A stretch of DNA of 64,000 nt from an uncultured Microcoleus sp. (GCA_964588805.1 CAZPRJ010000002.1:71586-135585); one strand, 5' to 3'; counted from the stretch's first letter, positions 12,724 to 17,598 are shown. The notes: generated from the letters alone by a model not told the origin. Translations and numbers: made by a program.

Positions 12724-12780
12724 TACAGTTATATAATGTCCAGCAAATCACCCCTAATATATATCTTGCTTTATCATTAG

Positions 12781-12884
12781 TCTGTACTTACACCAATTAA
12801 CCTTTCAAGCACCATTGGTAGGTACACACCGACGTTCGCCCTCACTATATGTGGAGTTCTTGCGTAAGTCCTGTAGGTTTTGGT
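12781..12884. mobile_element. MITE-like dispersed repeat, copy C (left border of inserted island)
   Basis: Left end TGTACTTACACC, TTAACCTTTCAAGCACCATTGGTAGG (matches copy D), right end GCGTAAGTCCTG. Confidence 0.6.
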
Positions 12885-13132
12885 AGGTCAATCTCCCGGA
12901 CTTGATATTACGGTTCAAGAACACTCATTCCTGCTGTCTTGCATAGTTCAAAACAATCGTATCTATCAATTTATTCAAGGATAAATTTGTATCATACGAA
13001 AAGTCTATAGCCTTCATTAATTAATTCAAACATCGATCTTCATCCAAACTTCACAATATAAGGCATACTGAATTTAGTTATAAAACAGACTAATTCGTTA
13101 AACCAAAAGTTTGCAAGAGGAAGAAATAAATT

Positions 13133-13327
13133 ATGGGTTTCCAAGATTTATTGTTGTTAACAGCACTCAATACTGCCGTTTGCCTCTGCTTGCCCAAAAT
13201 GGTATCTATCTTTGAGTCCATCAAAACTCGTCAGAGCCAAAAACTCAGTGTTAAACCTACCGTACAAGTGCAGCCAGAACTAGCTCAATCTGATGTTTAC
13301 CCAGAATTCGCCAGTCTAGCTCGTTAA
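13133..13327 (+). CDS. Small hypothetical protein (64 aa)
   Basis: ORF with AGGAAG Shine-Dalgarno 8 nt upstream; no homology recognised. Confidence 0.25.
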   Translation: MGFQDLLLLTALNTAVCLCLPKMVSIFESIKTRQSQKLSVKPTVQVQPELAQSDVYPEFASLAR

Positions 13328-14031
13328 AGTAAAACCGAACATTTTTTTAATTCAATATTAAGTAGACGGAAGATTAAAACATAGGGTGAGTGATACTCAC
13401 CCTGCAGCTAGATTGACTCATTTTCACCGACTTAATCGTTGATTTGAGATTCACATTACTGAATCAATTCTGAATTTATAGGCTGCTTCTTCAATTGCAG
13501 TCTAGTCTCCCAAATCACCTGGTCTTGCTCGCGTAAGCTCCTTCTCAATTTTATCTATAGCTCTAGTATCTCGCCTCAAATTAAGTCATTTTTCAAAAGG
13601 GTTTCTCTCATCTCCTGTCAAGGCGTTTTTAATCTCTATTGGTTGAGTTTCCCCTATTTGATAATCAATATATGGTGGCTTAATTTATACGAAAGCGCCA
13701 GCGAACAAGCGATGTTCTCTTCTCATCGTATATGGTTGCTGCAAAGCGCTTAAAGCCTACAGCGAGCGCTCAGACCTCAAAAGCGTATATCAAGAGGTCG
13801 CCATATATATGTATAATAAGTGGCAAAAGATATTAGTTAGAATAACCTGTTGGCTCATTCTTGAGATTATTCTAAACTTTGTGGGACTCGATAACTTAGC
13901 CGACTATAGTGAATTTGTTTTTGATGAGAAAGTTGTAATAGAAATAAGCCATAATATCTGTCAGTCTTAAATCTTGCACTGGCTTACTTACCAGTGAAGA
14001 AGATGTCTGAGAAGTCACTAGGCGATCGCAC

Positions 14032-14589
14032 TTATTGCTGCTTTAAAAGTGGTAATAGCCGTTGCAATTCTCCACAAGCTGCCTGAAGTGATGCGGGTGC
14101 GTCTTCTGGTAAGTTCTGAGAACGGCATTGCTCTGCCAGGTTCTTAACATAGGGCTTGCAAGTAGAATCCTTCTCAAATTTTGAATACCCTGTCTCTTCA
14201 TCAACAAGTTCTCCCTGTAAGTAGTGTATCCAAGTCTCAATATTTCGTTTAGGAATGAAGATAGCGATCGCTTCGTTGGGTTGACGATTTGGCTGGGTAT
14301 CTTCACTAAGGGATTGAGCTAACTGATTAAGTCGTTCTTGCAAAGTACCCGTATCTGCATCAATCAAAACAACCAATCCAATGGACAGACTGTTTCTCTT
14401 CTGGCGATATGCTTTTACTTCTTCTGCATACTTAGTGCGTACATATTGCTCTCCTGACTGGCTACCTTGGGGACAAATTTTAGGTCGGAATAAACCTGTA
14501 AAACCTCGCTTTTCTAGAAAATAACGAGCAAAAACTTCTTGCTGTCGATCTTCACAGAGGATAACAATCTGAACTCTACGCTGACTCAT
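14032..14589 (-). CDS. DUF4276-like / TOPRIM-like small protein, partner of the upstream ATPase
   Basis: 185 aa; N-terminal acidic motif VILCEDRQQE and LVVLIDADTG reminiscent of TOPRIM/DUF4276; overlaps the ATPase stop by 14 bp. Confidence 0.5.
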   Translation of the reverse strand: MSQRRVQIVILCEDRQQEVFARYFLEKRGFTGLFRPKICPQGSQSGEQYVRTKYAEEVKAYRQKRNSLSIGLVVLIDADTGTLQERLNQLAQSLSEDTQPNRQPNEAIAIFIPKRNIETWIHYLQGELVDEETGYSKFEKDSTCKPYVKNLAEQCRSQNLPEDAPASLQAACGELQRLLPLLKQQ

Positions 14590-15694
14590 TCAACCATCCC
14601 CGTGCAATCAGTTCAGAAACGGGTAAACCAGAATTATCAGCTACTTCGCTGCTAATTCGTTTGATTCGGACAGGAGCATTACTTTGACGCTCAAACCAAT
14701 AGCCAATTGGTGAAGCTAAAAGGTAGTTGATTAACTCAGGATGATGAGAAATCAGTAACGCTTGAATTTGTCCTTCACTACAGAGGTCATAAAGCTGAAT
14801 GAGCCAAGGTTGAATTTCGGGCAAGGCTAGGAAGTTTTCGGGTTCATCAATGCACAACGTATAGTCTTCAGATTTGGTGCCATGAAGAAGCGTGTACAAA
14901 GCCACTAAAGTTTTTTGTCCATCTGACAATTCATCGAAGTGATATTCAATTGGTTTATTGCTCTCTGTTCCTCCAGTAAAACGTAGTTTAAACACTAAAT
15001 TTTTTTCGCTGACTCGTTCAAACTTAAAGCTTGTAAAGCCATCCAAAACATCTCTTAAGATATTACCTATTTCAGCAACCTTGCCTTGATCTTCAGATAG
15101 GTAGCGATACCAAGAAACAAAATTTTCCATATTAATAGCCAAACGCATTTCTTCGTGGCTACTCTCATCAACCATCAAGCTAGGAATGATTCGCACGATA
15201 ATAAATCGTTTGATCCGTTCCCTAAACCAAGTTAATTTGGTGTTGTCATTCCTTGGCATCAATAAGGGTATGATAGACTGTGACCAGTCAAATGGGTATT
15301 GCGGGCCTAGTGAATGATTGTCTCGATAGAGTTGAACTTCCCCTAATTCAAATTTCAGTAAAGGTTGGTTATCAAACCACAGGCGCTCATACTCAACACG
15401 ACATTTATCCGGCTTGTGACCAATACCCAATTCATATTTATAGCTGCCACTATTACCTAGGATTTCTATCTCAAAGCGTTGAATAGGTGAGGTTTGCCAA
15501 CGAGTGCAGTCTGTAGATTTAAAAATTTCTTCTACTTTACTGTCACCACTGACAAATGCCTGAATTTTTTGTAAAACTTCAAAAACAGTTGATTTGCCTG
15601 ATCCGTTAGAGCCTAAAAATAAATTAATTGAGTCAAGGTCAAGTTCAAAATTCACCAGACAGCGAAAATTATCAATGTAGATATGTTTTAGCAT
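14576..15694 (-). CDS. ABC-type AAA ATPase (AAA_21/AAA_15-like, OLD/RecF-like)
   Basis: Walker A GSNGSGKST at N-terminus, Walker B/D-loop LCIDEPENFLA and LLISHHPE at C-terminus, long helical insert between. Confidence 0.85.
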   Translation of the reverse strand: MLKHIYIDNFRCLVNFELDLDSINLFLGSNGSGKSTVFEVLQKIQAFVSGDSKVEEIFKSTDCTRWQTSPIQRFEIEILGNSGSYKYELGIGHKPDKCRVEYERLWFDNQPLLKFELGEVQLYRDNHSLGPQYPFDWSQSIIPLLMPRNDNTKLTWFRERIKRFIIVRIIPSLMVDESSHEEMRLAINMENFVSWYRYLSEDQGKVAEIGNILRDVLDGFTSFKFERVSEKNLVFKLRFTGGTESNKPIEYHFDELSDGQKTLVALYTLLHGTKSEDYTLCIDEPENFLALPEIQPWLIQLYDLCSEGQIQALLISHHPELINYLLASPIGYWFERQSNAPVRIKRISSEVADNSGLPVSELIARGWLNESA

Positions 15695-16306: not shown

Positions 16307-16333
16307 CTTACCTAGCAATCAGTTGATGGTTTC

Positions 16334-16576
16334 TCAATCGATATCATCAGGTAAGTCATCAATCGACATTCCCGCTTGTTCTAAAAGTTCTTTCAACCGT
16401 TTGATTTGCCCTAGAGAGAGCTTAAGTTGATGTGCACCTCTTTCATGATTACCAAGTGTTTTGCGGGTTATTCCCAATTCGCTAGCAAATTGATCTTGAG
16501 TCATCCCTAAACGCTCACGCACTTGCTTGAGAGTTAGCAAATTGGGGTTGCTATTTGAATTTCTATCGTCTACCAT
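16334..16576 (-). CDS. XRE-family HTH transcriptional regulator (copy 2, tandem paralogue)
   Basis: LKQVRERLGMTQDQFASELGITRKTLGNHERG; probable start MVDDRNSNSN (ORF track extends to 16606). Confidence 0.8.
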   Translation of the reverse strand: MVDDRNSNSNPNLLTLKQVRERLGMTQDQFASELGITRKTLGNHERGAHQLKLSLGQIKRLKELLEQAGMSIDDLPDDID

Positions 16577-16951
16577 TTTACCTAGCGATGGGTAAAGTTT
16601 ACCCATTAAACATAAAAATAACGGGGAAACGCCTAGAGCAAGTTTCCCTGTCTCCCTATGGGTAGTTTCTCATACCAAGCAAGTCCGCCAAGAGTTAAAA
16701 CTCCTGGCTAATAGCCCAAGTCCACTCAAGTGGACTGAAATTTATGCTGGATGAGTGAAATAAGGAGGTGACCCCTAGACAATTATCAGGAAATTACTAG
16801 CTCGTACCGTTTTAAGTCTTCTATGAGTAACAGGCGATCTGCGCTTCGCAGCAGCGCTTCGCTATCGCTACTTTGGCGAGTATATGCGGTAAGCGAAGCC
16901 ATGCCGTTAGGCTTATCGCCCTTCACTAAAACAATCACACCAATAATAGCA

Positions 16952-17449
16952 ATGAAACATTCACAATGGCTTCGCCTTAAAGTAGAGGCGGACAGAATTG
17001 CTGCGGCTTTAAGAGCAGACGGTTTCGGGTGCCGTAAACACACACACCGCTTATCTTGGCACTTTCGCAAAGATACACTTTCCTATACCCTAGCTTGGCT
17101 ACCCGCGCCCGTCCGTGACTGGACATTATTACCCAACGATGGCACACCACAACGAGAGCAACTTCTCTCACAAATTCACTCTATCTTGCAGCATCGAGGC
17201 TGTGGCCGCACAGAAAAACAATCCCCACTCCCAACTCTCGACTCGCCACTGCCCATTCAGCCCATCTGGAATCAGCAAAACTACCCCTGGACACTAGTGA
17301 GACTTTTGCCCAACGCTCAACACTATATCATTGCTCGGTTTTATAGCCGTGCCGAAGCAGAAAATCATAAGCGCTTTCTAGGCAAATGGATGCCAGCAGC
17401 CGAGTTCGAGGTGATATTCGATGAGACAACTGCCATAGCTAATAATTGA
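16952..17449 (+). CDS. Hypothetical protein (island cargo)
   Basis: ORF 16823-17449; internal Met at 16952 (MKHSQWL...) more likely start; no domain recognised. Confidence 0.3.
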   Translation: MKHSQWLRLKVEADRIAAALRADGFGCRKHTHRLSWHFRKDTLSYTLAWLPAPVRDWTLLPNDGTPQREQLLSQIHSILQHRGCGRTEKQSPLPTLDSPLPIQPIWNQQNYPWTLVRLLPNAQHYIIARFYSRAEAENHKRFLGKWMPAAEFEVIFDETTAIANN

Positions 17450-17454
17450 GTGCC

Positions 17455-17578
17455 AACAGGACTTACGAAATTAACCTTTGAAGCACCATTTGTAGGGGCG
17501 CTCTCCCCGTGCGCCCTCATTATCTATGTGAGCCCCTACGAAGATGGTGTATTAAGGTCAAAAATGCGTAAGTCCTGT
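17455..17578. mobile_element. MITE-like dispersed repeat, copy D (right border of inserted island)
   Basis: CAGGACTTACGAAATTAACCTTTGAAGCACCATTTGTAGG...GCGTAAGTCCTG; internal hairpin GGGGCGCTCTCCCCGTGCGCCC. Confidence 0.6.
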
Positions 17579-17598
17579 AATACTGCACCGAAAGAAGA

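Follow-up and report, generated by a model that had tools for sequence, protein, structure and literature searches.

We take the znuABC genes and the Zur regulon of cyanobacteria, with Synechocystis ZnuA (PDB 1PQ4) and Anabaena all0833-all0830 as reference cases, to be the closest standard for a locus in a 64,000-nucleotide stretch of DNA from an uncultured Microcoleus sp. (GCA_964588805.1 CAZPRJ010000002.1:71586-135585; the window in what follows, with positions counted from its first letter). Like the reference operon, the locus encodes three components, its ZnuA has a His-rich loop, and a Zur-box-like palindrome lies over a promoter-like site upstream of znuA. Unlike it, the permease gene znuB lies 4.9 kb away, and a convergent gene as well as a terminator-like hairpin intervene. 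Our preferred reading, held with moderate confidence, takes these 4.9 kb for an accessory islet of mosaic make-up, in all likelihood serving anti-phage defence, which was built in the znuC-znuB spacer by several separate events and not by one transposition of a unit bounded by MITEs (miniature inverted-repeat transposable elements), as a sequence-only reading of the window had proposed.

Composites flanked by MITEs are documented, for example class 1 integrons of Acinetobacter, where the MITEs are identical, the duplication surrounds the whole unit and the same unit is found in several hosts (PMC10969869). In Acinetobacter these MITEs measure 439 bp; mcr-5, mobilised by IR148, is another instance. 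The window resembles them in that two MITEs of the same orientation bracket accessory genes. It differs from them in that its copies are 75% identical, no clear duplication is seen and the cargo also occurs where there are no MITEs. ISPlag1, from Planktothrix, belongs to the IS701 group, and its remnants lie at the borders of deletions in the mcy gene cluster (PMC2464740); the IS701 family generates 4-bp target duplications (PMC6352166). The elements of the window share with ISPlag1 and its 197-bp remnants the terminal repeat and the position at borders of cyanobacterial gene-cluster rearrangements; unlike ISPlag1, they are non-autonomous derivatives of 92-123 bp with an internal GC palindrome, and no cognate transposase is seen in the window.

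Among the accessory genes, an ATPase and a small partner protein recall the OLD-like pairs of ATPase and Toprim nuclease, that is P2 Old, Gabija GajA, PARIS AriA/AriB, AbiL, MADS Mad3/Mad4 and Menshen NsnB/NsnC, together with the PADLOC candidates HEC-01 and PDC-M25. The points of resemblance are the AAA15/AAA21 ATPase and an adjacent, translationally coupled small protein, which in the window has a Toprim-like E...DxD signature and weak matches to DUF4276 and DUF3226. DUF4276 has been described as a Toprim domain (PMC12065111) and pairs with AAA15/21 ATPases (PMC11464382). In contrast to class 1 and class 2 OLD, the ATPase and Toprim-like domains of the window are unfused; unlike MADS, the pair has no methyltransferase; unlike Menshen, it has no NsnA; and unlike PARIS, its partner is not DUF4435.

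Defence islands and variable hot spots between core genes offer a further comparison. Like them, the islet is low-GC accessory DNA amid housekeeping genes (the window neighbourhood is made up of photosynthetic and housekeeping genes), has no dedicated recombinase and carries mosaic cargo that is swapped: an ATPase/Toprim-like pair in the window, a GmrSD_C remnant in a close relative (L042) and an AAA_22/HNH cassette in another genome (L039). Unlike them, the hot spot of the window lies inside an operon, where it parts a permease gene from its partners, and its conserved anchors are an XRE and a 164-amino-acid protein instead of tRNA genes or integrase sites.

An interrupted znu operon

The genes of the operon are the following.

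11875-12723, minus strand: znuB, permease gene (Pfam ABC-3, E = 2.7e-61, profile positions 2-256 of 258; AztB/ZnuB-like in NCBIfam)
17599-18363, minus strand: znuC, ABC ATPase of the predicted zinc transporter (Pfam ABC_tran, 7.9e-29; the JGI gene call is 17599-18348)
18517-19644, minus strand: znuA, predicted periplasmic zinc-binding protein with a His-rich loop (Pfam ZnuA, 3.1e-78)

All components of a ZnuABC importer are present according to Pfam (PF01297, PF00005 and PF00950). The top NCBIfam matches of the three proteins are to Azt, Znu and Mnt families, all under the equivalog cut-offs. As the sequence-only reading had stated, the three genes share the minus strand and znuB is displaced, the separation between znuB and znuC being 4,875 bp (12724-17598).

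The ancestral operon was contiguous. The order znuA-znuC-znuB in direct succession occurs in related cyanobacteria at 10 loci in a scan of one genome per species and at 6 further loci in a metagenome scan (together L001-L005, L007, L009-L011, L014 and L022-L027). Spacers in these operons range from 2 nt (TAA-cc-GTG in L001) up to about 150 nt, and the island cargo is absent from all 16 loci. Since the related loci are contiguous and free of the cargo, the 4.9-kb island is a lineage-specific insertion, which upholds the earlier proposal of insertion into a formerly uninterrupted operon. The ZnuB proteins of the 16 loci are 56-86% identical to that of the window; because they are encoded contiguously with znuAC, the window znuB is the cognate permease gene, also as first proposed. 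A 21-kb match at 100% identity places the window on a 162-kb cyanobacterial chromosome contig of JGI metagenome 3300040801 (Ga0450804_1578916, record positions 1547-65546). The same strain carries the island at 100% identity in three other samples. Look-ups of the exact proteins returned this strain alone, in four samples and always with the island, and no empty site within the species.

In some cyanobacteria two tandem znuB paralogues lie 3' of znuC (L002, 4191-5948; L007, 1058-2626), and the window ZnuB is nearest to the second of the two.

The znuC junction in a close relative

The island and its edges contain the following features.

12724-12781: spacer of 58 bp from the znuB start codon to the left MITE, a remnant of the former spacer or else part of the island
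12782-12874, plus strand: left MITE, short sub-family, decayed, with left end CTGTACTTACAC, placed by family alignment
12875-14021: AT-rich filler, GC 0.35-0.41, with called open reading frames (ORFs) at 13133-13327 and 13809-13970, both on the plus strand
14032-14589, minus strand: partner protein of 185 amino acids, Toprim-like (DUF4276-like), predicted nuclease effector, its gene sharing its first 14 nt with the ATPase gene's end
14576-15694, minus strand: ABC-type ATPase of the AAA15/AAA21 family, predicted sensor/motor (PF13304, AAA_21, 68.6 bits, 1.3e-18; PF13175, AAA_15, 52.8 bits, 6.5e-14)
16008-16049, minus strand: fragment of an XRE 5' coding end, 42 nt, recognised by repeat family and by tblastn (14/14 residues, L042)
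16064-16318, minus strand: XRE1, helix-turn-helix regulator of 84 amino acids (Pfam HTH_3, 4.8e-11)
16334-16606, minus strand: XRE2, helix-turn-helix regulator of 90 amino acids (Pfam HTH_19/HTH_3), divergent from ORF164
16955-17449, plus strand: ORF164, conserved cyanobacterial protein of 164 amino acids, the anchor gene beside znuC
17456-17578, plus strand: right MITE, long sub-family, intact, with perfect 12-nt ends ACAGGACTTACG forming an inverted repeat
17579-17598: spacer of 20 bp by the znuC stop codon, kept in L042 (CTGCACCGAAAGAAG vs CTGCGACGAAAGAAG)

The relative that bears most directly on the history of the island is L042 (JGI 3300044961, a 303-kb contig), which was reached through a protein more than 90% identical to ORF164 and is much closer than the other relatives. 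Its ZnuC and ZnuA are 95% and 94% identical in amino acid sequence to those of the window, and DNA identity is 91-94% across znuAC. The gene order is MutS, XisH, XisI, a 120-amino-acid gene, a GmrSD_C remnant, XRE, ORF164, znuC and znuA. L042 is collinear with window positions 16008-17449 and 17583-19884 at 83-94% identity, and ORF164 and XRE abut the 3' end of znuC exactly as they do in the window.

The interruption in this collinearity coincides with the right MITE. The flanks are conserved up to the stop codon of ORF164 on one side and CTGCNNCGAAAGAAG on the other; between them the window has gtgcca, the MITE and aata, whereas L042 has an unrelated 76-bp stretch (10550-10625) and no MITE. 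The 76-bp stretch contains two GC-rich hairpins (z = -3.9) and may be a bidirectional terminator or a member of another small repeat family. The possibility that it is a decayed MITE was rejected after family alignment.

Collinearity ends for good exactly at 16008, the end of the 42-nt XRE fragment, which L042 has too. Past this point the window has the overlapping ATPase and partner genes, and L042 has the GmrSD_C remnant and the 120-amino-acid gene (7748-8816). Because they are present in both genomes, the znuC junction and the XRE/ORF164 pair predate the split of the two strains; at this junction the MITE is polymorphic, and there has been turnover of cargo. Since the cargo differs beyond 16008, the island is not one unit. 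The sequence-only reading had stated that relatives with the same cargo and no MITE would refute its proposal, and with ORF164 and XRE next to znuC, L042 is largely such a relative.

It is thus very unlikely that both MITEs, with all the DNA that they enclose, entered the znuC-znuB spacer as a single composite transposon through a transposase of the IS701 family acting in trans on the outer ends. The proposal draws on the presence of family members in the same orientation close to both operon genes, the left one being separated from the znuB start codon by 58 bp and the right one from the znuC stop codon by 20 bp, and on the existence of composites of this type elsewhere. The outer flanks, TAGT and TAAT, also match at three of four positions, and IS701 duplications are 4 bp long. 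However, no clear target-site duplication is found at the outer ends: a match of this quality has a chance probability of about 5-8%, and the flanks of the left MITE alone agree just as well. Identity between the two copies is only about 75%, they fall into separate sub-families, and the left copy has a degenerate outer end. The window encodes no transposase, the L042 junction has ORF164 and XRE against znuC without a MITE and other cargo beyond 16008, and the cargo block is found elsewhere without MITEs (see below).

L042 also provides an argument for a larger rearrangement, in which a chromosomal segment, inverted or translocated at a breakpoint downstream of znuC, would have brought unrelated DNA, and znuB, back near znuC, the split then not being owed to insertion into an uninterrupted spacer. 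Neither znuB nor an ATPase or partner gene lies within 10 kb in L042, whose neighbours beyond the islet (MutS, XisH/XisI) are different, so rearrangements do occur here; stand-alone znuB genes, with no znuAC nearby, are known from some cyanobacteria (L006 and L008). We nevertheless hold this explanation to be highly improbable for the window, where znuB keeps its ancestral strand and order, only 4.9 kb off, which makes insertion the simplest account, and where the intervening DNA is accessory and low in GC.

A second difference in length between the two genomes lies outside the operon: window positions of about 20110-22786, with a 97-amino-acid ORF, a response regulator and a CHASE3 histidine kinase, correspond to L042 13067-13770, with a 218-amino-acid ORF. 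The znuA-znuC spacer of the window contains about ten tandem copies of the octamer GCTCCCCA (18427-18511), and L042 is about 143 bp longer there.

Islet modules at other chromosomal sites

The islet modules recombine, and related genomes have them at two or more different places in the chromosome. In L031 the ATPase and partner genes, overlapping as in the window, stand alone, with ilvA on one side and an ABC-F gene on the other. In L035 an MFS transporter gene and a Rieske gene flank the ATPase gene and a remnant of the partner gene. A third arrangement, Uma2, XRE, ATPase, partner (frameshifted) and UbiB, occurs in L037 and does not include ORF164. In L039 the order is UbiB, partner, ATPase, an extra cassette at 5282-9220 (genes for proteins of 127 amino acids, HNH, 120 amino acids and AAA_22 of 889 amino acids), XRE, ORF164 and Uma2. 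DNA homology between L039 and the window covers window positions 14022-15698 and 16321-17447 at 82-87% identity and nothing outside them; the homologous block thus runs from the stop codon of the partner gene to that of ORF164. The 120-amino-acid gene of L042 is 93% identical in DNA to the one in the L039 cassette, which shows that cassettes are shuffled; in both genomes this other cargo is found at the same XRE-anchored position.

No MITE end of the form CAGGACTTACG was found near the module in L031, L035 or L037, and there is no MITE beside the block at the Uma2/UbiB locus. These absences bear on the idea that homologous recombination between MITEs created the island, a copy resident in the spacer having crossed with a cargo-side copy elsewhere (a Campbell-type integration or a translocation) to leave a hybrid MITE at one or both junctions. 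The family is abundant, copies of MITEs and insertion sequences are known substrates of recombination (PMC10969869), and ISPlag1 copies drove deletions in the Planktothrix mcy gene cluster (PMC2464740). The border copies of the window have a 28-nt core that is 93% identical, and L009 has a family member directly beside its znu operon. Against this stand the very short stretch of shared identity, at most 15-28 nt, the fact that none of the 16 related loci has a MITE between znuC and znuB, its absence at the Uma2/UbiB locus as just described, and the L042 junction without one. We therefore give this route, including a role of MITEs as recombination substrates at a single junction, a low probability.

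Two MITEs with ISPlag1-like ends

The two border elements belong to a family that is short (92-123 bp), non-coding, multi-copy and intergenic, with ends ACAGGACTTACGCA. In the window the full or partial copies number five; there is also an isolated end near 25850, and 19905-19990 may be a relic. All of these are intergenic, and more copies are present in L009 and L042. A copy in the same orientation at each edge of the island had been noticed in the sequence-only reading (12781-12884 and 17455-17578), and the present analysis finds both with slightly different ends, at 12782-12874 and 17456-17578. The terminal repeat of the family, CAGGACTTACGCAAG..., is that of ISPlag1, and the right end of the left MITE agrees with the published 29-nt ISPlag1 repeat at 25 of 29 positions. 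Both MITEs derive from an IS701-group element with ISPlag1-like ends.

Overall identity between the border copies is about 75%, with a 30-bp indel; beyond the 28-nt core they have the end CGTAAGTCCTGT in common. The right MITE is of the 123-bp sub-family also seen at window 2330-2405 and L042 15170-15271, and the left one of the 92-94-bp sub-family seen at window 7278-7371 and 38220-38313. The right copy folds as a full-length hairpin (z = -6.4 against shuffles), whereas the left, with its degenerate outer end, folds no better than shuffled sequence (z = 0.18). The immediate flanks are TAGT/TAGG for the left copy and, with no duplication there, CCAA/TAAT for the right; they are TTCA/TTCA for the copy at 38220, a result that depends on where the boundary is placed, and AACAA/AACAA for the copy in L009.

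Two such copies in the island are not beyond chance. In intergenic DNA the family has a density of 0.33-0.55 copies per kb outside the island, and in the window there is about one copy for every 1.5-3 kb of such DNA; 0.6-1.0 MITEs are therefore expected in the 1,778 bp of non-coding island DNA, and the probability of two or more is 0.12-0.26.

In L009 the element (5134-5259) lies upstream of znuA, is intact and has AACAA as a 5-bp duplication. The possible relic upstream of znuA in the window (19905-19990) consists of an 11-nt GC palindrome and a degenerate end, and may be a decayed MITE.

Regulators and anchor gene

The cargo had been listed in the sequence-only reading as an ATPase and DUF4276 pair, duplicated XRE regulators, orphan ORFs and a non-coding stretch of 700 bp. 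The ATPase, the XRE pair and the stretch of about 700 bp are borne out. The supposed orphan 'ORF208' is instead the conserved 164-amino-acid protein, ORF164, with 87 homologue clusters in filamentous cyanobacteria, and the DUF4276 match falls below the Pfam threshold. PHROGs assigns the cargo to generic ATPase and helix-turn-helix families only.

The XRE array (16008-16606) consists of 2.1 copies of a 270-bp unit that ends in the 42-nt fragment, with 84% identity between copies. XRE1 is nearest to the XRE of L039 (89% amino acid identity) and XRE2 to that of L037 (96%). The array is thus not a simple recent duplication, which suggests that it arose by recombination between two island variants. 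It could further be imagined that the divergent XRE/ORF164 pair is a portable landing pad for the exchange, without a recombinase, of defence cassettes downstream of the XRE, with swaps within the XRE 5' coding region and relocation of the whole pad between sites (UbiB/Uma2 versus znuC/znuB). This would explain the tandem and truncated XRE genes, the exact breakpoint after the 42-nt fragment, and the presence of L037-like and L039-like XREs side by side; we consider it rather unlikely.

A candidate defence pair

Both Pfam scores of the ATPase are above cut-off. Its PADLOC matches include PDC-M25A (3e-23), AriA (7e-21), HEC-01A (3e-20), AbiLi, mad3 and NsnB. More than 4,500 homologues were found, and the 120 best are 66-92% identical and mostly cyanobacterial. 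The search of plasmids gave one match, 30% identical, from Dolichospermum, and that of phages none; nothing here points to an origin from a plasmid or phage.

The partner has 876 homologues, and the 14-nt overlap of its gene with that of the ATPase recurs in L031 and L039. An alignment of 22 homologues reveals an invariant Glu13 after predicted strand beta-1 and an invariant Asp77-x-Asp79 after predicted strand beta-3, in a predicted beta-alpha-beta-alpha topology. Residues and topology agree with what has been published on DUF4276 as a Toprim domain (PMC12065111). Together with the gene overlap, these residues point to a Toprim nuclease. Direct family matches are weak: 17.6 bits to DUF4276, for which the cut-off is 30.2, and E = 0.001 to PADLOC HEC-01B, no family threshold being reached. 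Of the same 22 homologues, 3 match DUF4276 and 2 match DUF3226, again weakly. A profile of the partner matched no PDB sequence at E <= 10.

By analogy with the described pairs, the ATPase and its partner are a candidate defence pair of the OLD/PARIS/AbiL/MADS type under an XRE regulator. PARIS itself was considered and rejected, as the partner has no DUF4435 match and the AriA match of the ATPase is one of shared domain. On this reading the ATPase would sense a cue of infection and release or activate the Toprim-like nuclease, while XRE would repress the cassette.

Composition and non-coding parts of the island

The GC content of 12724-17598 is 0.33-0.42, against 0.47-0.53 in the flanks, with the exception of 16800-17450 at about 0.5; the island is thus heterogeneous within itself. 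The AT-rich filler matches nothing in Pfam, PADLOC or PHROG and is not common to L037, L039 or L042, and a BLAST search of 12724-14031 against plasmids gave no match. The stretch of about 700 bp (13328-14031) has a sole ORF, of 53 amino acids. An Rfam scan of 11500-20200 at E <= 1 returned nothing, so the stretch holds no known RNA. At the znuB edge, the 58-bp spacer (12724-12781) has no similarity to the 2-nt spacer of L001.

A perfect 9-nt inverted repeat at the island borders (12775-12783 and 17596-17604; CATTAGTCT and AGACTAATG) was considered as a possible recombination site and rejected, since L042 does not retain its right copy, which extends over the stop codon of znuC. The repeat is probably due to chance.

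A proposed stepwise assembly and the points against it

An islet assembled in steps would have begun with insertion of the XRE/ORF164 block into the znuC-znuB spacer. Recombination at the XRE genes or in their vicinity would then have exchanged the cargo and left tandem and partial copies of XRE as its scars. The MITEs would have landed independently in non-essential DNA at the edges, the right one recently.

Four points weigh against this stepwise origin. L042 could have lost the right MITE instead of the window having gained it, for in place of a clean empty site it has the unrelated 76-bp stretch. The comparison with L042, which bears on the ages of the parts, covers the znuC side of the island, the left MITE and the 1.3-kb AT-rich filler lying beyond it. 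No transposase, integrase or recombinase was called in the 64-kb window, so the mechanism of insertion is conjectural. Finally, the chance that both MITEs would lie in the outermost non-coding segments and in the same orientation is about 0.04, a figure calculated post hoc.

Probable consequences for znuB

The promoter scan finds a promoter-like site, TTGACT-17-TACTAT, upstream of znuA (19858-19830, minus strand). Over it lies a Zur-box-like palindrome, TGAGAATCATTACTA (19831-19845), with 3 mismatches to the consensus; the window-wide count of such palindromes is not above that in shuffles. Nothing comparable is present immediately upstream of znuB. The scan, which finds fewer sites than in shuffles, detects no convincing znuB promoter and one weak promoter-like site on the minus strand, at 13084-13055. 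A terminator scan places a terminator-like hairpin at 13403-13383 on the same strand.

The convergent ORF164, the minus-strand candidate defence genes and this hairpin now lie between the znuA promoter-like site and znuB. Because ORF164 and the hairpin separate it from the promoter-like site of znuA, znuB is probably transcribed from a promoter within 12724-13380 or by read-through, and its transcription is likely uncoupled from that of znuAC. The gene is probably still in use, since it is full length and matches its family from end to end.

On its other side znuB is adjoined by a gene for an 886-amino-acid homologue of the eukaryotic major vault protein (9007-11667, plus strand), followed by a serpin gene (7402-8754, minus strand). 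JGI gene calls assign to the vault protein homologue the domains Vault, Vault_2/3/4 and MVP_shoulder, which is unusual in a cyanobacterium.

Implications

The case calls for caution in reading pairs of abundant MITEs as units of transposition; here one close relative broke the composite model. The ATPase and Toprim-like pair is widespread in filamentous cyanobacteria and experimentally uncharacterised, which makes it a reasonable candidate for defence tests in a phylum with few validated systems. The locus is also a natural example of an accessory islet of probable defence type inside a metal-uptake operon, with the permease gene intact yet cut off from its putative Zur-type promoter. How operons tolerate such splits becomes a testable question.

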